A stretch of DNA of 64,000 nt. It comes from a virus. The stretch lies in IMG/VR virus record IMGVR_UViG_3300036715_002535, positions 32,001 through 96,000 of that record; one strand, written 5' to 3'. Each line of letters opens with the position of its first letter. Within the stretch, counting starts at the first letter, position 1. A model generated the notes under the pieces. That model did no database searches, was not told where the DNA came from, and worked only from the letters and a program-made list of their open reading frames with translations. Shown here piece by piece: positions 2,073 through 60,203 of the stretch. The translations under genes and the position numbers were made by a program.

Positions 2073-2093
2073 GACCCAGTTCCACAAAATATG

Positions 2094-2124
2094 CCCTTGA
2101 CATTTAAACCGTCAAGGGCATATT
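2094..2124 (+). promoter_or_regulatory. Class I palindromic promoter copy (probably leaderless transcript)
   Basis: CCCTTGAC-atttaaacc-GTCAAGGG-CATATT; ATG 2130 follows after 5 nt with no RBS. Confidence 0.8.
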
Positions 2125-2129
2125 TAATT

Positions 2130-3530
2130 ATGGTGAAATTAGAGAACGTCCAACCAGTCCTTGAAGCCATCCGGAACGCGGGTGGCATTCCTATGATCGT
2201 TGGCGGATTCGTTCGCGACCACGTGCTTGGAATAGACTCCAAAGACATCGATATCGAGGTTTACAAAATGACCTCGGACCAGCTTGCCGCCGTTTTAAGC
2301 CGGCATGGGAAGTCGGAAACCGTTGGTGCCTCATATGGGGTCATGAAGCTTTGGATGGATGGGCAGGACTACGACTTCACCCTTCCTCGGCGCGACAACA
2401 AGTGTGGTAGGAACCACAAGGACTTCACGGTCGAGATCGATCCAAATATGACATTCGAGGAGGCAGCTTCTCGACGGGACTTTACCTTCAATTCAATCTC
2501 CATGTGCCCCTTTGCCATGCGGGTCGAAGATCCTTTCAATGGCCTGGAGGATTTGGAGAAGGGTCTCATCCGTCATACTTCCATGGCCTTCGTTGAGGAC
2601 CCTCTTCGGGTTCTTCGTGGCATGCAGTTTGCTGGTCGGTTCGATTTCGAGGTGACTTCTGAAACTTCGAAACTCTGCCAGTCCATGTTCGATACCTACG
2701 ACGCTCTTGCCAAGGAGCGGGTGTGGGTCGAATGGGAAAAGTGGGCGACCAAGTCCATCAAGCCTTCCGCTGGAATTCGCTTCCTTGATCAGACTGGCTG
2801 GTTGAAGCACTTCCCTCAGATCGAAGCGCTCAAGGGTATCCCGCAGGATCCCATCTGGCACCCTGAAGGCGATGTCTTTGTGCACACCATGCACGTTGTG
2901 GATGCTGCAGCTCAGATCGCAAAGGACTTCGTTCCGGAAGAGCGCCTCATCACAGTCATGGCGGCTCTCTGCCACGACTTTGGAAAGGTCACCAACACCG
3001 CCTACTTCGGCAAGTTCTCAACCCGCGCTGATGGCACCCAGTTTGAGGTCGAAGGACCTCGTTTCCGTAGTCATGGGCACGAAGCTGCCGGTGAGGATCC
3101 CACTAAGGTGTTCCTCGAAGGTATCGGCGCTCCTCAGCACCTCATCGCAAAGATCGTCCCCCTCGTTACCAACCATCTGGCTCACTGCACCTTCCAAGGT
3201 GAAGCGCCTACTCCTCGGTCTGTTCGCCGGTTGGCCGTTCGACTTCATCCGGCTACCATCGATCAGCTCATCCCTGTCATCCACGCGGATGCCGCTGGGC
3301 GTCCACCCCTTTCGCAGGAACTCCCTACTACGGCAGTCCAGCTCCAGGAGATGGCAAAGCATGTAAGGGTCGCAGATGGTCAGCCGAAGCCGATCGTGAT
3401 GGGACGAGATCTCATCAAGGCCGGTATCAGGCCTGGACCTGAAATGGGACAGATCCTCTCCAAGTTGTACGAGTTGCAGCTTGATGGTGCCTTCGATAAC
3501 GTAGAAGACGGACTGACCTACGTTAAATAA
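2130..3530 (+). CDS. cca: CCA-adding tRNA nucleotidyltransferase with HD domain
   Basis: VGGFVRD, DIDIEV, RRDFTFNSI, EDPLRVLRGMQF, ERVWVEWEK motifs; HPEGDVFVHT...CHDFGK HD domain; C-terminal GRDLI..G.RPGPEMG. Confidence 0.92.
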   Translation: MVKLENVQPVLEAIRNAGGIPMIVGGFVRDHVLGIDSKDIDIEVYKMTSDQLAAVLSRHGKSETVGASYGVMKLWMDGQDYDFTLPRRDNKCGRNHKDFTVEIDPNMTFEEAASRRDFTFNSISMCPFAMRVEDPFNGLEDLEKGLIRHTSMAFVEDPLRVLRGMQFAGRFDFEVTSETSKLCQSMFDTYDALAKERVWVEWEKWATKSIKPSAGIRFLDQTGWLKHFPQIEALKGIPQDPIWHPEGDVFVHTMHVVDAAAQIAKDFVPEERLITVMAALCHDFGKVTNTAYFGKFSTRADGTQFEVEGPRFRSHGHEAAGEDPTKVFLEGIGAPQHLIAKIVPLVTNHLAHCTFQGEAPTPRSVRRLAVRLHPATIDQLIPVIHADAAGRPPLSQELPTTAVQLQEMAKHVRVADGQPKPIVMGRDLIKAGIRPGPEMGQILSKLYELQLDGAFDNVEDGLTYVK

Positions 3531-17887: not shown

Positions 17888-18542
17888 TTACTTTCCTTTC
17901 AACCAAGAATCAAGAGGAAATTTCTGTCCTGTACGATGATCCAGGATAAGATTGTCCTGAAACCGGTAAGTTCGGATCTTGTCTCCCCTTTGCCCAGAGC
18001 CAATCTTGTCTTTTCGTTCTCGATTGATGTCTGCGTGAGCATTATTCTTTACCAGCTCCTGAAGTTTCATCTCCAACAGCTCCAATGCAACTACACGATT
18101 CCGGATCTGAGACCTGCCATCGATCCGGACTTGAAGACCGGTCGGCTTGTGGGTCGCAATAACACAGGATTCTACCTTGTTGCGGTGCTGCCCTCCAGGA
18201 CCACTGCCCCGGGTAGTTCTAACGTCTATATCCCGCAAATTTAAAGATGCCGCGCGGTTCTGGAGCTCATAACAGGCCACGGTTATGGTAGAGGTGTGAA
18301 CTCTACCCTTCTTCTCTGTAGGTGGAATACGCTGGAAGCGATGTCCTCCACTCCCTTGAAGAAATTCACCGGCGCTATCACCCTTGATGAGAAGGGAAGC
18401 GAAGCCAGGCGCCTCTTCTAAGAGTTCGGTCTCAAAGTCCCCTCCGCTCCGTCCGACGTAAATAGGCTTTCAGTTGATCCCTGACGAGTAGGACTGCATC
18501 GTCCCCACCCTCAGCAGCTCGAATCTCAAGAATGAGTTCCAT
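17888..18542 (-). CDS. Class-1 peptide chain release factor-like protein (RF1-type PxT, lacks N-terminal domain), programmed +1 frameshift at 18437-18432
   Basis: ATG 18542 (GGAGG RBS) MELILEIRAAEGGDDA...RRGL then TGA; +1 frame gives GGHRFQRIPPTEKKGRVHTST, GSGPGGQHRNK, KIRTY..DHRTG; about 217 aa joined. Confidence 0.88.
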
Positions 18543-18560
18543 GCTGCACCTCCTTGAGCA

Positions 18561-18571
18561 ATTATAACCCC
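18561..18571 (-). promoter_or_regulatory. Class II promoter (GGGGTTATAAT)
   Basis: Upstream of the release-factor RBS; same core as other class II sites. Confidence 0.65.
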
Positions 18572-18586
18572 AAGATCTAAGAATCC

Positions 18587-18617
18587 GCCTTGACAATTAA
18601 ATCGTCAAGGGTATATT
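18587..18617 (+). promoter_or_regulatory. Class I palindromic promoter copy
   Basis: GCCTTGAC-aattaaatc-GTCAAGGG-TATATT. Confidence 0.9.
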
Positions 18618-18635: not shown

Positions 18636-19184
18636 ATGCTGACCATAGTGAGCTCCATCATCTGCAGCGAATTCCGGAAGGAGTTTCAATCTCCGGAGCG
18701 TCAGAAGAATGAGGGTTTCTTGTCCGAGCCCAACAAGGCCATGATGGTTCGCTTCAAGCTGACTCCGGATTTCGAAGTCGAGGAAGGCTACCGCAATCTG
18801 AGCATCCTGATCTTCGGCGCCGGCAGAAACTACATCACCGTGATGGCGAAGCTGGACTGGACCGTGATCCAGAACGAAGACATCAACGATGATGGTGAGG
18901 GGCTCAAGAAGGGCAAGGAATACACCGAGGGTGAAACCCCTTGGGTGCACTTCAGTTGCCATGACTCCTGCTGGACCTCGGACGGCGTGGAATCCATCAT
19001 CCAGATGTTCCGCAACCGGATCAACTGCATGGATTCGCGCTTCGATCGTTGGTACGAAACGATGACCCTGACTCCCGAACAGATCAAGGATTTCAATCAG
19101 ATCACTCGCGACACTCGCGAAGGCAAGCTCACCCATTCCCGCAAGTTCGAAACCCTCGAGTTCAAGTTCCCGGTGAAGAAATGA
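18636..19184 (+). CDS. hypothetical protein
   Basis: GGGAGG RBS after promoter. Confidence 0.7.
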   Translation: MLTIVSSIICSEFRKEFQSPERQKNEGFLSEPNKAMMVRFKLTPDFEVEEGYRNLSILIFGAGRNYITVMAKLDWTVIQNEDINDDGEGLKKGKEYTEGETPWVHFSCHDSCWTSDGVESIIQMFRNRINCMDSRFDRWYETMTLTPEQIKDFNQITRDTREGKLTHSRKFETLEFKFPVKK

Positions 19185-19949: not shown

Positions 19950-20441
19950 ATGGTAACCGTCACCGATAAAGAAAAAGCACTGGATCACTTCGATGAGTCG
20001 GATCTTTTCATTTCGATTCTCGATCCTGGTTTCAAGAAGTTTCCTCTCAAAGGATCTAAGGAGAAGCACTTTATTGCTCGATTCGAGGATACAGAACATC
20101 CCTCCGAACTAGAATGGATGAAGATGAACCGAGAGGTTCGATCAATTCTCTCATGGGTTCAACATAAGAAACCTTCTGTCGATACGAAAATTCTTGTACA
20201 TTGTCACGCTGGGGTTTCAAGATCATCCGCAATTGCGTGGCTAATCCTTATCATGCAGGGAAGAGAACCTCTTGAAGCCTTCCAATCTCTTTTCAAATCG
20301 AGATCTCAAATTTGGCCGAACTTAGTTGTGCTGGGTATAGGTTCCAAATTCCTGAACCTCGATCCCGGTTTCATGAAGCTCGCAATTCAGATCGATGAAG
20401 AAATTCGTGAAGGACGTGGTCAACTATTTGGATACTGCTGA
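19950..20441 (+). CDS. Tyrosine/dual-specificity phosphatase-like protein
   Basis: ILVHCHAGVSRSSA (CX5R), FED loop, WPN motif. Confidence 0.85.
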   Translation: MVTVTDKEKALDHFDESDLFISILDPGFKKFPLKGSKEKHFIARFEDTEHPSELEWMKMNREVRSILSWVQHKKPSVDTKILVHCHAGVSRSSAIAWLILIMQGREPLEAFQSLFKSRSQIWPNLVVLGIGSKFLNLDPGFMKLAIQIDEEIREGRGQLFGYC

Positions 20442-23697: not shown

Positions 23698-24366
23698 TTG
23701 GCAAAGGCAGTCGTTATCCTATCCGGCGGAATGGACTCAGTCGTTCTAGCCTACTTCCTCAAGAACCAAGGCTACGAACTCAGTTGCCTGTCGTTCAACT
23801 ACGGTCAGCGCCACGCGAAGGAACTCGGGTTCGCGGAGCAGTGCGCGAAGGATGTCCGGTCCCCTTGGCACCTGGTCGATCTCAGCACCATCCAGGGTCT
23901 TCTGCCTGGTTCATCTCTCACTGACAGCTCGATCGAGGTTCCCGAAGGGCACTTCGAAGCGGAGATCATGAAGGCCACGGTAGTGCCCAATCGGAATGCG
24001 ATCATGCTTTCGATTGCGTGGGGCCACGCAGTTGCCATCGGAGCGGATGTGGTAGCCTTTGGCGCTCACGCGGGTGACCATGCTATCTACCCTGATTGCC
24101 GTCCAGAGTTCTGGGAGAAGATCGAAGCCGGGTTCAAGTCTGGCAACGAGGGCTTTGGCAATCCAGAACTTCGACTGTACCCACCTTTCATCAAGATCAC
24201 CAAGGCGGATATCACCAAGCGTGGGTACGATCTGGGTGTCAACTACGCGTACACCTGGAGCTGCTACAAGGGTGGGGAGAAGCACTGTGGCAAGTGTGGA
24301 ACTTGCGTGGAGCGGAAGGAAGCCTTCGAGCTGGCAGGTGTTCCTGACCCAACGGTGTACGAATGA
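23698..24366 (+). CDS. queC: 7-cyano-7-deazaguanine synthase
   Basis: LSGGMDS, YGQRH, VPNRNAI, YPDCR, TWSCY...HCGKCGTC.ER. Confidence 0.95.
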   Translation: MAKAVVILSGGMDSVVLAYFLKNQGYELSCLSFNYGQRHAKELGFAEQCAKDVRSPWHLVDLSTIQGLLPGSSLTDSSIEVPEGHFEAEIMKATVVPNRNAIMLSIAWGHAVAIGADVVAFGAHAGDHAIYPDCRPEFWEKIEAGFKSGNEGFGNPELRLYPPFIKITKADITKRGYDLGVNYAYTWSCYKGGEKHCGKCGTCVERKEAFELAGVPDPTVYE

Positions 24367-54541: not shown

Positions 54542-57367
54542 TTACAGTGCGCAGATAAACTCCAATCCCTCCGGTACAAGATCGAAGCCCAAGATCAAGC
54601 GCTGCCCAGAGGGATTGACACAGAAGTTCGAAGCACCCAAGCTGAATACTGATCCATCCAACCTAGCACGCTGCTTGATATCCGTGACCTTCCCGCCTAC
54701 ATAGAGAAAGCCCTTGTGTGCCCGGTAAATCGTCTTGATGCCTACCTTGTGACCCAAGAGCCTGTCCTTCCAACCTACCGCTACCCTAACCGTACTCTTC
54801 TTAAGCAATTCCTCGTAGGTATGCACGAGGATCCTACCATTGTCGAATTGTACCACTAACTTATCCGTGGGCTCCACGCAAACTGCCGTTTTAAGTGGCA
54901 CCCTACTGAAAGCCCTCCTACCATTAGGACCTTCATCCTGCAACCGGCATATCAGCGTGCCATCGCTCCCCAACCCCACCACCACCTGATCCCTATCTGG
55001 CACAACTAATAAACACTCCTGCTGCTCCCGCTCATACCCTAACCGCTTACCTGGCGCATATACCGATACCGCTTCCATATACCCACCAGAGTCCACGAAT
55101 GAAAAATAATCCTTACATTCCCCTACTAACTTACCCGTGAACCCTCTTCCTCGTATAGGCTGATCCTGAGATAACTCCCATCCCTTATCTGTCACCACTA
55201 CCCAATTACTCCTGGACTCTAACTTCTTGAATTGTGGCAAATCACTCTTATCGCAATACTTGGTTGTACGTGGTAGGTCCGCTGCCTTATAAAACTCTAC
55301 TAACTCATCCACCTGCTTCTTCAATTCAAATAGAGGAGAGGTCCCTTTCCAATAGATATACTTCTCCCTACTGCTTGCGTACTTGAGCTTCAACTGCTCC
55401 TCGTTCAATTTCAAGATCTGCGATACCTTCAATGACAAAGCATAATCTACCATCCGCGGCACGATGAACTTCGCTAATTCTTTTTTCACCAACTCCAAGG
55501 TTTCAGAACTAAGCGCCTTCAAGAACTTGGCGTGGTTCTGAATGATCTTGATCTGCGTATCCAACTCTAACGACTCTTGTTCATAGGTGGCTACGAGATC
55601 CGTAATACGTAGATCCCATAGTCCCAACCTATGCTGTGTCCAATAAGAGAGAATGTCTACCAGCGAGCACATCTTGATTTCGAATGAGCTTTCTTCACCA
55701 CTCCGTGAGGCATCCTCGTTCGATGCGCCTTTTCGTAAGGGTTTCTTAGACTCGGAGGGCACTACCACGTGGAACTGATAGCTCTCACGCTTGATCAGAG
55801 CAGGTAGGATCCTCGTGCTGAACAAACGTGGATCTTTCATCACTACCTGCACGCTGACCGCTTCCGTCGAAAAGTCCGCGAGCTCGATCATCTCTTTCTC
55901 TACGAGATCAGCCCACGCAGAGCTCAGAGTCGAATAGGTGACTAGGGGTGCGAACCCAGTGATGGTCACCTTAGACTGCTTGAGATCGAGCTCATATGCG
56001 CAGCAGTACGCTAGAGAGCCGACCCCAGTGCGGTATATCTCGGCTATCTCGTCGTGCCCACTCAAGCAATAACACTTATTTTCGAGCTGAGGCCCCTCCA
56101 TCAACGCAAAATAACTTTTTTCAGTTTTACTTATCTCACGGGAGTGGTTCGGGGAAACTTCTAAATTCCCTGGAACCCCATCTTCCACATCAACAACACC
56201 GGAAACCGGTGTGGAGGGATCATTATCGGGGGTAGGGTTACCCTTAGTCTTCTTACCACCAATAGGGGACTTAGAGTCATCCAGGGTGCTAATGCGTTCC
56301 TTTGCGAGGATCTTTTCGTACTGATCATTGATATAGGCTTGGGATGTTTTGGCTACGGACAGGATATGATGGGAGGGGATACTTCCAGAGAAGCCCATGG
56401 AGATGCCAGAGTAGCCATTGACAAGGATCAGGGGGAGGAGGGAGGAGAGGACTTCAGGTTCCTTTTCTTTGCCATCAAAGTTGGGTACAAAGTGGAGATA
56501 TTTTTTATCCAGGAAGTGGGAGAAGCCCAGGTCAGTGATGCCGGATTCGGTATAGCGATAGGCAGCTGGGGGGTGGCCTTTGATAGATCCATAGTTGCCC
56601 ACGCTTTGGATAAGGGGGTATTTGATAGTCCAGGGGGTGGCAAGGGCAACGAGGGCTTCGTATGCGGAGGAGTTATGGGTTACGAGGAGTTGGTCACCGC
56701 TTACGATGAGGGCATTTTCATAGTCATTGACGGTAAAGTCATACATAGGTTCAGGGGAGGGGAGTTCTTCAATTTGGATTGACTTGATATAGAGGGGATG
56801 GGGGAGGGAGGATTTATCTAGGACAAGTTTATCGGATTGAAGGAGGGAGGGGTAGTGTTGGATAACTTGGTAGGGTTTCAGGTCTTCAGCTTTTATCCAG
56901 CGTTGATTTACAAAGAAGGGGTGATTAGAGGTGCAGCGTACAGTTTGCCCATTACTTAGGTGCAGGTTGTAGATTTTGGTTGAGTATTGACCAATGCGGA
57001 AGGAGTGGGCAATAGAGGGAACTAAGCGACCTTCTTTGTTGAGGGATAGGACTTCAAGTTGGGGGGTATGGGATTCGATGAGTTGGGGGATAGTTTTGGG
57101 GATTCCATCCAGGCTGAACAGTTTGGTGTTACCCTCGAGGCAATCTCCATGGGGATTGTAGCTTCCGATTACATGTCCAATGATCTTCGCGCACTTGAGG
57201 GAGCCACGATCTGGTTTGAGGCCCATTTCGTAGGCGGACCAGAGGATGCGTCGTTGTACAGGTTTGAGGCCATCACGGATATCGGGGAAGGCGCGATTGA
57301 GGGAGATATAGTGGCCATACTCCAGGAGGTTGGTTTTGATCAGTTGTTCAGCGACTACGTGGGACAT
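54542..57367 (-). CDS. gyrA: Type IIA topoisomerase subunit A (GyrA/ParC-like) with mini-intein
   Basis: RAFPDIRDGLKPVQRRIL, YNPHGD/SSAY, GNYGS, AAYRYTE (active Tyr), NFDGKEKEP, LVNG..GI.MG. Confidence 0.88.
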   Translation of the reverse strand: MSHVVAEQLIKTNLLEYGHYISLNRAFPDIRDGLKPVQRRILWSAYEMGLKPDRGSLKCAKIIGHVIGSYNPHGDCLEGNTKLFSLDGIPKTIPQLIESHTPQLEVLSLNKEGRLVPSIAHSFRIGQYSTKIYNLHLSNGQTVRCTSNHPFFVNQRWIKAEDLKPYQVIQHYPSLLQSDKLVLDKSSLPHPLYIKSIQIEELPSPEPMYDFTVNDYENALIVSGDQLLVTHNSSAYEALVALATPWTIKYPLIQSVGNYGSIKGHPPAAYRYTESGITDLGFSHFLDKKYLHFVPNFDGKEKEPEVLSSLLPLILVNGYSGISMGFSGSIPSHHILSVAKTSQAYINDQYEKILAKERISTLDDSKSPIGGKKTKGNPTPDNDPSTPVSGVVDVEDGVPGNLEVSPNHSREISKTEKSYFALMEGPQLENKCYCLSGHDEIAEIYRTGVGSLAYCCAYELDLKQSKVTITGFAPLVTYSTLSSAWADLVEKEMIELADFSTEAVSVQVVMKDPRLFSTRILPALIKRESYQFHVVVPSESKKPLRKGASNEDASRSGEESSFEIKMCSLVDILSYWTQHRLGLWDLRITDLVATYEQESLELDTQIKIIQNHAKFLKALSSETLELVKKELAKFIVPRMVDYALSLKVSQILKLNEEQLKLKYASSREKYIYWKGTSPLFELKKQVDELVEFYKAADLPRTTKYCDKSDLPQFKKLESRSNWVVVTDKGWELSQDQPIRGRGFTGKLVGECKDYFSFVDSGGYMEAVSVYAPGKRLGYEREQQECLLVVPDRDQVVVGLGSDGTLICRLQDEGPNGRRAFSRVPLKTAVCVEPTDKLVVQFDNGRILVHTYEELLKKSTVRVAVGWKDRLLGHKVGIKTIYRAHKGFLYVGGKVTDIKQRARLDGSVFSLGASNFCVNPSGQRLILGFDLVPEGLEFICAL
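56672..57142 (-). mobile_element. Mini-intein (157 aa, no homing endonuclease)
   Basis: Begins CLEGNT after HGD; block B CTSNHPF; block F MYDFTV; ends VTHN followed by Ser. Confidence 0.9.
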
Positions 57368-57453
57368 GGGGGGACCTCAGGGGTATAACCGGAGTGGAGA
57401 GGGTTTTCGCCTTGAACGAATAAAGAGAGGAGAAGGTAGACCTTGGATCGTTT

Positions 57454-57492
57454 GGAGTAACCCCTTTGAAAGTGGGGATGCCTGGTTATAAT
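57454..57492. promoter_or_regulatory. Divergent class II promoter element
   Basis: GGAGTAACCCCTTTGAAAGTGGGG...GGTTATAAT between gyrA and the 57510 gene. Confidence 0.65.
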
Positions 57493-57509
57493 ATGGGATG
57501 GAGGGTTCG

Positions 57510-57995
57510 ATGACCAAGATGCGTATTCAGGCAGCAGTAGTCAAGACCAAAACATTCAACTACAAGGATGAGGAACAGGAGGCAAAGGCTTGGGCTACGA
57601 AGATGAAGGAAAAGGGTAACGTTGTCTTCGAGGATGACAAGGGTTCCGATACCTACTGCTTGTACGCTGCACCTTCCAAGAAGGATATTCAGGATTGGTG
57701 CGAGGAGCAGGAGCAGGAGGTCAAGTTAGTTTCTTTCACGGCTAGGGTCCAGGTTGCCTCCAACACCTCCATCTGGGCAATCTTACGGCAGGATGCTTTC
57801 GGGCAGGGGGATGCCATTACTCTAGTAACTGCGTTGAACGAGCAGGAAGCATTTTCAATCTACGCTATTGAGAGTGCAGGAAGCATAGCGCCCTCAAACG
57901 TTTCTGAGGAACAAAACAGGGCGGTGCTGGAAGAATTTTATGGGGACTACAAGGATGGTTACTACAAAGTTCTACCAACGGAAATGATTGGGTAG
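57510..57995 (+). CDS. hypothetical protein, KLRIxA N-terminal family
   Basis: GGAGG RBS; MTKMRIQAA; internal ARVQVAS. Confidence 0.65.
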   Translation: MTKMRIQAAVVKTKTFNYKDEEQEAKAWATKMKEKGNVVFEDDKGSDTYCLYAAPSKKDIQDWCEEQEQEVKLVSFTARVQVASNTSIWAILRQDAFGQGDAITLVTALNEQEAFSIYAIESAGSIAPSNVSEEQNRAVLEEFYGDYKDGYYKVLPTEMIG

Positions 57996-58374
57996 TCGGC
58001 TCGTTTGGAGTATATGCTAGAGGGTTTCGCCCAAGAAGAACCTACCTTCATCGCGGGAGAGGTTCAGGAAGAACTTCTGGCCATCTTTTCGTTGGAAGCC
58101 AAGGAGGTAGCGTGCTTCGCCGGGGGTTGGTCAGTAGGGACCTGGAGTAGCTTCCGATCAAGGGATACGTGGATCAGTTCGAAGGGTCCGCCGTTCATGT
58201 TTAGTTCCTTTGTTCAGGGTGCGATCAGTTGGGTCCTAGGCTTTCAGTGCCCTTGCCAGGTTTGACGACGAGCTTGGATTCCAGCCACGCATCAAACTTT
58301 GGGAATCGTTCGCATAACTTCTCAAGAATCCAGATGAGGGGTGTTGCGAAGTTCTCTTCCATGGGGACCTCGTG

Positions 58375-58428
58375 GGGAGTAACCCTTTTGAAAGTGGGGT
58401 TACAATTACTTATGGTGAAGCTACGTAT
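58375..58428 (+). repeat. 54-bp promoter-plus-start repeat, copy 1
   Basis: GGGAGTAACCCTTTTGAAAGTGGGGTTACAATTACTTATGGTGAAGCTACGTAT, identical at 59576-59629, partial at 58913-58953. Confidence 0.92.
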
Positions 58429-58864
58429 TGCATCCCAAGGTGAGATTAATAGGATCATGTGGACCCTCGGTCATCTGCGGAAGGCAGTGAGGGGGCTTCA
58501 CAAGTACGAGTCGTCTGTCAATGTGGAGGGGAAGGTAGCTCTCAAGGCAGCGATGGGAGTTTTGTTGGAAGTAATCAAGCAGGAAGAGGGTAAGATCGAG
58601 AAATTAAAGTTCGAGGGTGAAGAACATCCTCGAACCTGGAGCATTCGGAAAACGGTAAAGAGTCTGAGTTGGACCCTTCGGAAGTTGAAGTTTGCTTCCA
58701 ACGATCTACAGATCTATCTGGGTCCACACCTTCTGGGTAAGACCACGATAGGTAAGGATGCCATTCTGCGTGCGAAGGCCATCATAGATCAAGCTGTGAA
58801 TGAGATGCAGGAGAAGGTTAAGGCTCTCGAGGGTGAGCTGTGGAGAGAAGTCTTTCCTGATTAG
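58412..58864 (+). CDS. helical hypothetical protein, KLRIxA family (leaderless)
   Basis: ATG 5 nt after TACAAT; MVKLRIASQ; internal duplication (WTL..L...GK.A...A....Q). Confidence 0.65.
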   Translation: MVKLRIASQGEINRIMWTLGHLRKAVRGLHKYESSVNVEGKVALKAAMGVLLEVIKQEEGKIEKLKFEGEEHPRTWSIRKTVKSLSWTLRKLKFASNDLQIYLGPHLLGKTTIGKDAILRAKAIIDQAVNEMQEKVKALEGELWREVFPD

Positions 58865-58935
58865 TAGGTGCAGGTGTAGCACGAGAACAGTTGGTAATCG
58901 TTCTTCAGTAGCTGAAAGTGGGGTTACTATTACTT

Positions 58936-59502
58936 ATGGTGAAGCTACGTATTCAAGCAAGTGTCAAGGCGAACATGTGGGATGATGCTTATCACCCAAG
59001 TAAGCTTGGTCCCTCTTTGACCATCAACCCTTGGCAGGAAGATCAGTTCTGGGTGGCGCCAAAGGATCCAGGTATTCCCGAGGAAACGAAGCAGCATCTG
59101 AGGGAGTGGTTGCAATACAACAACAAGAGTTTGACAGGCGAGGATCTCAATTTCTTGATGCGTAAGTACTCTTACTCCGGGACGATGTTTCGAGGGGTGG
59201 GGTTTCAGACCATGGAAGAGATGGAGGAGTTTCTATCCACGTTAGGGAATGAGAGGCATCCTACCTCGTGGTCCAAGTCTTTTGAGGTAGCCAAGGAGTT
59301 CGCTTCGGAGGGGCAGACTCAATCCTCCCTTCCCAATCATTGGTTGGTTCTGAAGTATAAGGGCAAGGCATTCGACTTGCACAAAATGCATTTGAAGCTC
59401 TCTCCACCCAGTCAGAAGAAGAAAGATCGTGGGGTGGTGAGGGAGCAGGAACTAGTGATCCCTGCAGGATCCTACAGCTTCGAAGTAGTGGATAAGGGTT
59501 AG
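58936..59502 (+). CDS. Putative R-S-E type ADP-ribosyltransferase, KLRIxA family
   Basis: MVKLRIQAS; MFRG, PTSWSKSFEVAKEFA, REQELVI. Confidence 0.65.
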   Translation: MVKLRIQASVKANMWDDAYHPSKLGPSLTINPWQEDQFWVAPKDPGIPEETKQHLREWLQYNNKSLTGEDLNFLMRKYSYSGTMFRGVGFQTMEEMEEFLSTLGNERHPTSWSKSFEVAKEFASEGQTQSSLPNHWLVLKYKGKAFDLHKMHLKLSPPSQKKKDRGVVREQELVIPAGSYSFEVVDKG

Positions 59503-59575
59503 TCCTGCGTGCAGGTAGGGCAATATATTGCAGCCAGGGGTGGAGCCGCATGTGGTGCAGGCGCCTTGGAGGGTT

Positions 59576-59629
59576 GGGAGTAACCCTTTTGAAAGTGGGG
59601 TTACAATTACTTATGGTGAAGCTACGTAT
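59576..59629 (+). repeat. 54-bp promoter-plus-start repeat, copy 2
   Basis: Identical to 58375-58428. Confidence 0.92.
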
Positions 59630-60203
59630 CAAAGCCGGTCTATCTAATAGGGTCTACCATTTCACAACTCTTTCCTCGAAAGCATCTCAATTAGTTGTGG
59701 TGGATGTTCAGCCAGTACATCGTGGGTTCATTCACTTTGATGTTCCTAGTTTGATGAAGAAGTTCGAGGACTATGGACGGGTGCTCATTGTCTATAATGG
59801 GGCAGAGTTAGGTTACGAGGATAGTCCAAATACCATTCAAGAGTGGTATTTGGAGGAGGGTATGAACGAAGAGGTTCATTTAGAGTTTAAAGATAAGGCT
59901 TACGGTTTTCTTCGTGGGGCAATGGATACTGGAGTTGCTGACGAGAACATCGTTGGAGCAATCAAGGTAATGCTCGAAGAAGACTTATCAGATAGCAGGG
60001 AATTATCTACCGAGATGCAAGAGCAGTTTGGTTTGAGTGAAGATACAGCTATCAGCATTCCGGATGATCTGATAGATGCCTTGAAGGATTTCAATGGGGC
60101 AGATATTTGCGGTGGTGGAGATAACGATTGTTTAAGAGAAGTGGAGTTGCTAGCTGAAGGTGCTGGCTTAAGATTCAATCGTTTGTATCGATTTGTTTAT
60201 TAA
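59613..60203 (+). CDS. Cysteine-hydrolase/isochorismatase-like protein, KLRIxA family
   Basis: MVKLRIKAG; LVVVDVQP, DK.YG, GG...DCL.E pattern. Confidence 0.45.
   Translation: MVKLRIKAGLSNRVYHFTTLSSKASQLVVVDVQPVHRGFIHFDVPSLMKKFEDYGRVLIVYNGAELGYEDSPNTIQEWYLEEGMNEEVHLEFKDKAYGFLRGAMDTGVADENIVGAIKVMLEEDLSDSRELSTEMQEQFGLSEDTAISIPDDLIDALKDFNGADICGGGDNDCLREVELLAEGAGLRFNRLYRFVY

Follow-up and report, generated by a model that had tools for sequence, protein, structure and literature searches.

A predicted prfB-like +1 frameshift gate at UGA in an RF1-type release factor gene of a large phage family

Programmed frameshifting in class-I release factor genes is best known from bacterial prfB, the gene for RF2, in which a short zero-frame ORF ends at CUU UGA, an SD-like stimulator precedes this site with a 3-nt spacing, and the main body of the protein follows in the +1 frame (Craigen and Caskey, 1986, cited in PMC3711429; reviewed in PMC5009743). 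The prfB site lies at codon 26, within domain 1, and the product reads its own gate codon. Programmed frameshifting has been attributed to RF2 genes, with no case known among RF1 genes (PMC12421855; PMC5009743; reviewer remark in PMC1586002): in a survey covering more than 12,000 bacterial genomes, a programmed frameshift was detected in none of the prfA genes, and TAG was not found in the prfB motif (PMC12421855), and a 2016 review of recoding called the RF1/UAG counterpart of the prfB frameshift unknown and noted that readthrough gates had never been seen in release factor genes (PMC5009743). In our own full-text literature search, no report emerged of a frameshift in release factor genes of phages or of the RF1 type. 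Among viral release factors, Borges et al. reported RF1 in TGA-recoded Jade phages and RF2 in TAG-recoded Lak and Agate phages; these are likewise phage-encoded class-I factors, often located near tRNA genes, and the passages searched in that report mention no frameshift gate (10.1101/2021.08.26.457843). The release factor gene of Mimivirus and Megavirus is also viral and needs both readthrough and frameshifting (PMC3521657, cited in PMC5009743) but is of the eukaryote type, belongs to viruses of amoebae and uses signals different from those described below. Finally, the PrfH family (RF-H, TIGR03072), which is paired with RtcB, lacks domain 1 and retains the GGQ motif in a protein of a length similar to that of the phage factor analyzed here.

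The window, a 64-kb stretch of a 111.8-kb linear IMG/VR virus record (approximately 56% complete by CheckV), carries on its minus strand, at positions 17888-18542, a release factor (RF) gene that is interrupted in the manner of prfB. A ribosome-binding site, AAGGAGG (18549-18555, read from the sequence), lies 6 nt upstream of the ATG (18542-18540) that opens a zero-frame ORF of 36 codons plus TGA (18432-18542); this ORF accounts for the beginning of RF domain 2, including residues G12 G13 D14 D15 (codons at 18509-18498), which align with G116-E119 of RF1, the U1-reading tip of helix alpha5. The shift site itself consists of CTT as codon 36 (18435-18437) and TGA as codon 37 (18432-18434), followed by G at 18431, and an internal Shine-Dalgarno-like GGAGG (18441-18445) is separated from the slip codon by the 3-nt spacer GGA (18440-18438), the SD-like run being made of the Arg-Arg-Gly codons directly upstream of the gate. 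The +1-frame ORF extends from GAG at 18433 to TAA at 17890-17888 (181 codons plus TAA; 17888-18433) and encodes the rest of domain 2 together with domains 3 and 4. In this part of the protein, alignment and family conservation place the tripeptide P73-P74-T75, equivalent to P184-x-T186 of RF1 (codons at 18317-18325), and the catalytic GGQ (G116 G117 Q118, codons at 18188-18196), which is invariant in 80 of 80 relatives. Thus, the phage gene shares with prfB the class-I release factor gene, the short zero-frame ORF preceding the main body, the CUU UGA site, the SD-like stimulator with its 3-nt spacing and the direction of the shift. The base after the UGA is C in prfB and G in the window gene, so that slipping may be less efficient in the latter.

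When CTTT is read as a single step, the two ORFs yield a joined product of 217 aa, in which the junction RRGL-ETELLEE aligns with EMGF-ETEVLD of RF1 without a gap and without an extra residue (Thermus thermophilus RF1 residues 107-319, E 2e-42). The RF homology continues only in the +1 frame, whose translation contains both QRIPPTE and GGQ; beyond the gate TGA, the zero frame reaches TGA-TAG after 17 codons and is devoid of homology. In the 64-kb window, there is a single copy of the complete cassette GGAGGNNNCTTTGA, compared to 0.07 expected, and this copy lies exactly at the frame change of the homology; the bare hexamer CTTTGA is present in 59 copies and is uninformative alone. The decoding elements are divided between the two pieces, one in the zero-frame part and the others in the +1 part, so that a stop codon could be decoded by neither of them separately.

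A profile scan of IMG/VR returned 369 matching stretches, from which 80 were taken, many of them on contigs of 200-600 kb; the loci were sorted by comparing the reading frames of the N-terminal motif and the tripeptide and clustered at 90% identity, resulting in 80 clusters. A +1 shift is needed in 55 of these: at the codon of the window gene, the site is CTT-TGA in 41 clusters, CTT-TAG in seven, CTT-TAA in two and TTT-TAG in one, and displaced sites were found ten codons downstream (CTT-TGA, two clusters) and sixteen codons downstream (CTT-TAG, two clusters). Another 22 clusters contain one or two in-frame stops, bringing the stop-gated genes to 77 of 80, and three genes are uninterrupted. 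L001-L004 and L008 had already shown CTT-TGA at this codon in an initial scan of viral contigs. CTT serves as the slip codon in 54 of the 55 shifted genes, although it accounts for only 16% of their other Leu codons. A five-out-of-five SD-like match is present in 39 of the 55, and 35 of these 39 have it exactly 3 nt upstream of the slip codon. The base 3' of the gate stop in the same genes is C (41), G (11) or A (3), never T; a T in this position has been reported to lower stop-codon readthrough and thus to make termination stronger (PMC5289835). The genes that share these features are highly diverged: pairwise identity among the 41 CTT-TGA genes is 38-86% (median 51%), and the window protein is 41-56% identical to its shifted relatives. 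The original prediction had claimed a frameshift at CTT-TGA, had proposed conservation of GGAGG-NNN-CTT-TGA as one check, and had named in-frame homologues devoid of CTTTGA as one sign against it; the gapless junction, the 41 clusters with the same hexamer at the same codon and the dominant 3-nt spacing all bear it out, and uninterrupted homologues are limited to three of 80 next to the 22 with in-frame stops. It is very probable that the gene is expressed via a programmed +1 frameshift.

The gate is also reflected in the protein databases. A search produced 2,909 matches at E < 1e-10; 118 of the 120 best among these are +1-frame ORF calls devoid of the N-terminal motif, and many of the best 120 start with G-G-x-F-[ED], the +1-frame translation of the cassette. 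Some protein calls extend upstream beyond the gate; in these, the residues following the Phe reveal the stop, namely TGA in 70 cases, TAG in nine and TAA in two. Since gene callers split or truncate nearly all members of the family, these genes are systematically mis-annotated in phage genomes. A scan of cellular genome contigs with single-protein patterns retrieved mostly generic GGQ-domain matches and only one member of the family, L095; this contig, from an Acidobacteriota MAG, is rich in tRNA genes and probably belongs to a phage, and its RF gene has the same gate.

A phylogenetic tree with cellular RF1 as the root unites the short phage factors in a single clade (SH-aLRT 99), within which the 77 gated genes comprise one clade (SH-aLRT 98), with the three uninterrupted genes in basal positions. 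The window gene belongs to a well-supported group of 14, in 13 of which the gate is UGA. At the point where gated genes read GGT-CTT-T-GAG, the uninterrupted genes read GGT-TTT-GAG (Gly-Phe-Glu), so that one inserted base before TTT-GAR gave rise to both the slip codon and the stop. The prfB site is located in domain 1, whereas the phage site, at codon 36, lies in domain 2, at approximately RF1 residue 140; hence the phage site arose independently of the prfB site, by this 1-nt insertion. The UAG gates at the codon of the window gene (seven CTT-TAG and one TTT-TAG) are scattered as single tips within UGA clades, with eight changes for eight rows. Furthermore, such UAG gates are never found in prfB (PMC12421855). 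Among the phage of the window and 14 related phages, a small sample, the gate codon is unrelated to stop-codon usage or GC content of the phage.

The in-frame stops show a diversity of their own. In five clusters, an in-frame UGA occupies the Trp/Phe/Leu position itself, and Trp is the residue usually inserted by UGA readthrough. In-frame GGY-TGA at the frameshift-site position (Trp/Phe/Leu) is present in L059-L063, L084, L085, L092 and L093, as a candidate readthrough gate. In L052, L053 and L078, two in-frame stops, TGA and TAG, occur within one RF gene (codons 38 and 46, respectively, counted from the motif start); the 318-kb phage of this lineage nevertheless appears to use the standard code, with table 11 ORFs covering 95% of the stretch sampled away from the RF gene and 76% of the RF-gene stretch. 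Recoding was considered and rejected for four phages with in-frame-stop RF genes: in samples of 20 kb, the coverage by table 11 is 79-95%, translation of TGA or TAG as sense brings no gain in distant stretches, and TGA ends 23-67% of the ORFs. Given that these genes reside in phages that, as sampled, employ the standard code, readthrough is probably needed. The same holds for the code of the window's phage, for which reading of TGA as Trp was rejected: table 11 ORFs cover 86%, TGA ends 92 of 194 greedy ORFs and is the commonest stop, and numerous gene pairs have ATGA start-stop overlaps. In this respect, the phage differs from the recoded phages that are known to encode release factors.

RF1 is the family that the phage protein matches best. 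Against the NCBIfam profiles, the 217-aa product scores approximately 193-194 bits for RF1 (TIGR00019), 116.8 for RF2, 82.9 for PrfH and 28.6 for ArfB. The RF1 match spans profile positions 113-338 only and does not reach the equivalog cut-off of 423.25 bits; no NCBIfam score reaches its cut-off, as the product has nothing that corresponds to domain 1, which occupies the initial 105-110 positions of the RF1 and RF2 profiles. The Pfam domains are detected above their cut-offs, namely RF-1 (PF00472, 84.5 bits against 35) and PCRF (PF03462, 67.7 bits against 24), the latter only over its second half (profile positions 101-194), with positions 101-134 contributed by the zero-frame part; a search of the entire 111.8-kb record yielded no domain-1 match. 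The predicted fold is set by alignment to solved RF1 structures (E 2e-42), in which Q70, T83 and G12-D15 of the product correspond to Gln181, Thr194 and G116-E119 of RF1. The PxT motif, Gln181, Thr194 and GGQ are thus held in common with bacterial RF1 (prfA), the best-scoring family, and domains 2-4 align end to end; the differences are that prfA encodes domain 1, has Glu119 and lacks a programmed frameshift (PMC12421855; PMC5009743), whereas the phage factor has no domain 1, Asp at the position of Glu119 and Pro in the middle of the tripeptide. The decoding residues are largely kept among the relatives (Gln181 in 77 of 80, Pro184 in 76, Thr186 in 71, and Thr194 and GGQ in all 80), as are the two departures from RF1, i.e., Asp for Glu119 (79/80) and the middle Pro (80/80). 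The remaining variation in the tripeptide involves Asn for Thr186 in nine relatives and Ser for Pro184 in four. Pro-Pro-Asn was observed in nine clusters, and Ser-Pro-Thr, a mix of the SPF of RF2 and the PxT of RF1, in P0008, P0012, P0013, P0029 and P0030 and in L024, L028 and L086; the stop-codon specificity of relatives with either tripeptide may be altered.

We conclude from these sequence features that the window product is, by prediction, a class-I release factor of the RF1 type without domain 1, one that should read UAA and UAG and not UGA. In all these points the original prediction holds: it had assigned the gene to RF1 and noted the missing domain 1, had pointed out that the shift occurs at a position unlike codon 26 of prfB, and had considered autoregulation improbable, as would be expected if a factor of the PxT/Gln181 type does not read UGA. 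Its suggestion of a ribosome-rescue switch, on the other hand, is unsupported, given the full stop-decoding set, the absence of an RtcB partner and the dissimilarity to ArfB. Two other family assignments were rejected. PrfH is only the third-best family, with 82.9 bits against a cut-off of 166.65, and the canonical PxT set is retained in the phage factor, with neither RtcB nor a conserved neighbor; a conserved partner gene beside the RF gene was sought across the 80 loci, and RtcB in the record of the window, with negative results. The ArfB match covers residues 97-127 only and scores 28.6 bits against a cut-off of 100, and the product possesses a complete decoding domain 2/4. Domain 1 has been reported to be dispensable for codon-specific release and required for the action of RF3, and a truncated RF1 to be functional in vivo (PMC1586002); the absence of domain 1 therefore leads to the prediction that the phage factor is, plausibly, active without RF3.

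Since the anatomy of the phage gate matches that of prfB feature for feature, we take the mechanism over from prfB. The ribosome would pause with CUU in the P site and the slowly decoded UGA in the A site, while the internal GGAGG 3 nt upstream would pair with 16S rRNA; the peptidyl-tRNA-Leu would then move from CUU to UUU, and decoding would restart at GAG. Because the slip would compete with termination at UGA, the yield of the phage factor should go up when the host RF2 is slow and down when it is fast. In a bacterium with the standard code, UGA is read by RF2. In prfB, the product reads the gate codon; given that the phage product is predicted to be unable to do so, the loop would be cross-regulatory, with RF2 activity setting the supply of an RF1-type factor, rather than direct self-regulation. 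Taken as a whole, such a cross-regulatory gate of the prfB type is, to judge from the sequence, probably the best explanation of the locus, and it is likely that synthesis of the factor is inversely coupled to RF2-dependent termination at UGA. Whereas the anatomy of the locus, the conservation of its signal throughout the family and the RF1-type residues are direct observations, we infer that the slip takes place and responds to RF2, which codons the factor reads and how the phage benefits. With respect to this benefit, the phage could gain from load sharing, whereby the RF1-type factor would take over UAA stops and free RF2 for UGA; UGA and UAA, both of which are served by RF2, end about three quarters of the ORFs of the phage. 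The freed RF2 would in turn close the gate, resulting in an indirect negative feedback loop. Conceivably, the gate could also function as a sensor of translation stress, as suggested in the original prediction. Relatives with the same decoding motifs are gated by UAG, UAA or in-frame stops, which implies that sensing of RF2 is not the general selected function; the trait that is conserved across the family is stop-codon gating with a preference for UGA, not RF2 sensing as such.

The diversity of gates also bears on the possibility that the gate is a fixed attenuator that caps the dose of a potentially harmful, RF3-independent factor at a low, constant share of translation starts, with the response to release factors as a by-product, a reading that we consider unlikely. 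It would accommodate the subfamily in which frameshift gates and in-frame gates interchange at codon 41/42 (L037 and L060 versus L026, L031 and L068), the variation of the stop codon and the dominance of UGA followed by C, which is a leaky context; moreover, overexpression of RF1 and RF2 has been found to lower the fitness of Bacillus subtilis (PMC12421855). A weak ribosome-binding site would suffice for this purpose, yet the RF gene has the strong AAGGAGG; that a signal of this complexity persists in 77 of 80 genes despite identities of 38-86% suggests an output that is regulated rather than constant; and any stop-codon gate must, by its mechanism, respond to release factor activity.

Direct self-regulation, in which a factor of broadened specificity reads UGA along with UAA and UAG and thereby exerts prfB-like negative feedback through its own product, is in our assessment quite improbable. 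Family members with nearly identical decoding motifs are gated by UGA, UAG and UAA, as would be expected of such a factor, but this mixture is equally compatible with a looser constraint. The non-standard features that are fixed in the family (Asp for Glu119 and the middle Pro) and the tripeptide variants (Asn for Thr186 in nine relatives, Ser for Pro184 in four) could likewise hint at a changed specificity, an alternative that the original prediction had also raised. Nevertheless, the specificity residues of RF1 are kept (the Thr of PxT, Gln181 and Thr194), the RF1 score is far above that for RF2, and prfB, which is self-regulated, never uses TAG (PMC12421855).

The cross-regulatory gate departs from prfB in its gene family, in where the site lies and how it originated, in a predicted product specificity that does not match the gate codon, and in tolerating UAG. 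A prfB-like signal that arose independently at another position, in a gene of the RF1 type, has been kept across a large phage family. Owing to the mismatch between the UGA gate and the predicted UAA/UAG specificity, the family amounts to a natural experiment on the signal to which gates of this kind respond, in which frameshift, UAG, UAA and in-frame readthrough gates can be compared side by side. More tentatively, the family might be an RF3-independent, RF1-derived clade in which nearly universal stop-codon gates act as a meter of termination capacity, either with a cross-circuit to RF2 in the UGA-gated majority, the window gene included, or with an omnipotent release factor. If true, the cross-circuit or the omnipotent factor would represent a new mode of control over translation termination in infected cells.

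The frame change is not a sequencing error. Although single-base frame changes are a frequent type of error in metagenomic contigs, the same hexamer, at the same codon and with the same change of frame, recurs in 41 diverged relatives from independent samples, with constrained codon choice and full conservation of catalytic and decoding residues on both sides of the shift, so that an assembly artefact or a decaying pseudogene is extremely improbable. There is similarly little to commend separate translation of the downstream ORF with GGAGG as its ribosome-binding site: despite the SD-like sequence directly upstream of the +1 ORF, no ATG, GTG or TTG is available from 18433 until the GTG at 18280, the first start codon in this frame, which is past the PPT loop, so that the product would be devoid of this decoding element, and the U1-recognizing helix tip is encoded in the zero-frame part. 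Transcriptional slippage at the gate was rejected on general grounds, the run of three T being too short.

With respect to the genomic setting, the RF gene is the first of a run of minus-strand genes, at a divergent intergenic region. The sequence GGTTABAAT occurs seven times in the window, compared to 0.8 copies expected, in each case directly upstream of a gene start: at 18561-18569 (-), 25515, 45078 (-), 57484, 58398, 59599 and 61628. The first of these, the promoter-like motif GGTTATAAT at 18561-18569 on the minus strand, ends 18 nt upstream of the ATG of the RF gene, and GGTTABAAT is thus a candidate phage promoter class that includes this gene. A near-consensus promoter, TTGACA-16-TATATT, lies at 18590-18617 (+), within the palindrome TTGAC...GTCAA, between the RF gene and a plus-strand gene at 18636. 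Nearby genes with phage-family matches encode a tRNA nucleotidyltransferase, topoisomerase II, a QueC-like enzyme, an exonuclease and a phosphoesterase, whereas the genes directly flanking the RF gene have no functional assignment; the RNA- and translation-related cargo of the window includes the CCA-adding tRNA nucleotidyltransferase (2091-3530, +), the QueC-like enzyme of the 7-deazaguanine pathway (23698-24366, +) and a dual-specificity-phosphatase-like protein (19950-20441, +). A search of the window's record for tRNA genes gave none. Among the other loci, about 35 of 60 contain tRNA genes in the 1.5-3 kb flanks of the RF gene, and in many the RF gene is located inside a tRNA array, for example with 19 tRNA genes in L095 (1181-4091) and 11 in L008 (475-5600). 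Genes for tmRNA adjoin the RF gene in L005 (281-647) and L057 (597-955). Genes for tRNAs with the amber-suppressor anticodon CUA, which ARAGORN labels tRNA-Pyl, are present in L045 (3024-3096), L073 (2978-3050) and L079 (3113-3189), 1-1.5 kb downstream of the RF gene; the gate of L079 is TTT-TAG. In the window itself, the GC skew rises to +0.25 at 56001-60000, compared to about -0.05 elsewhere.
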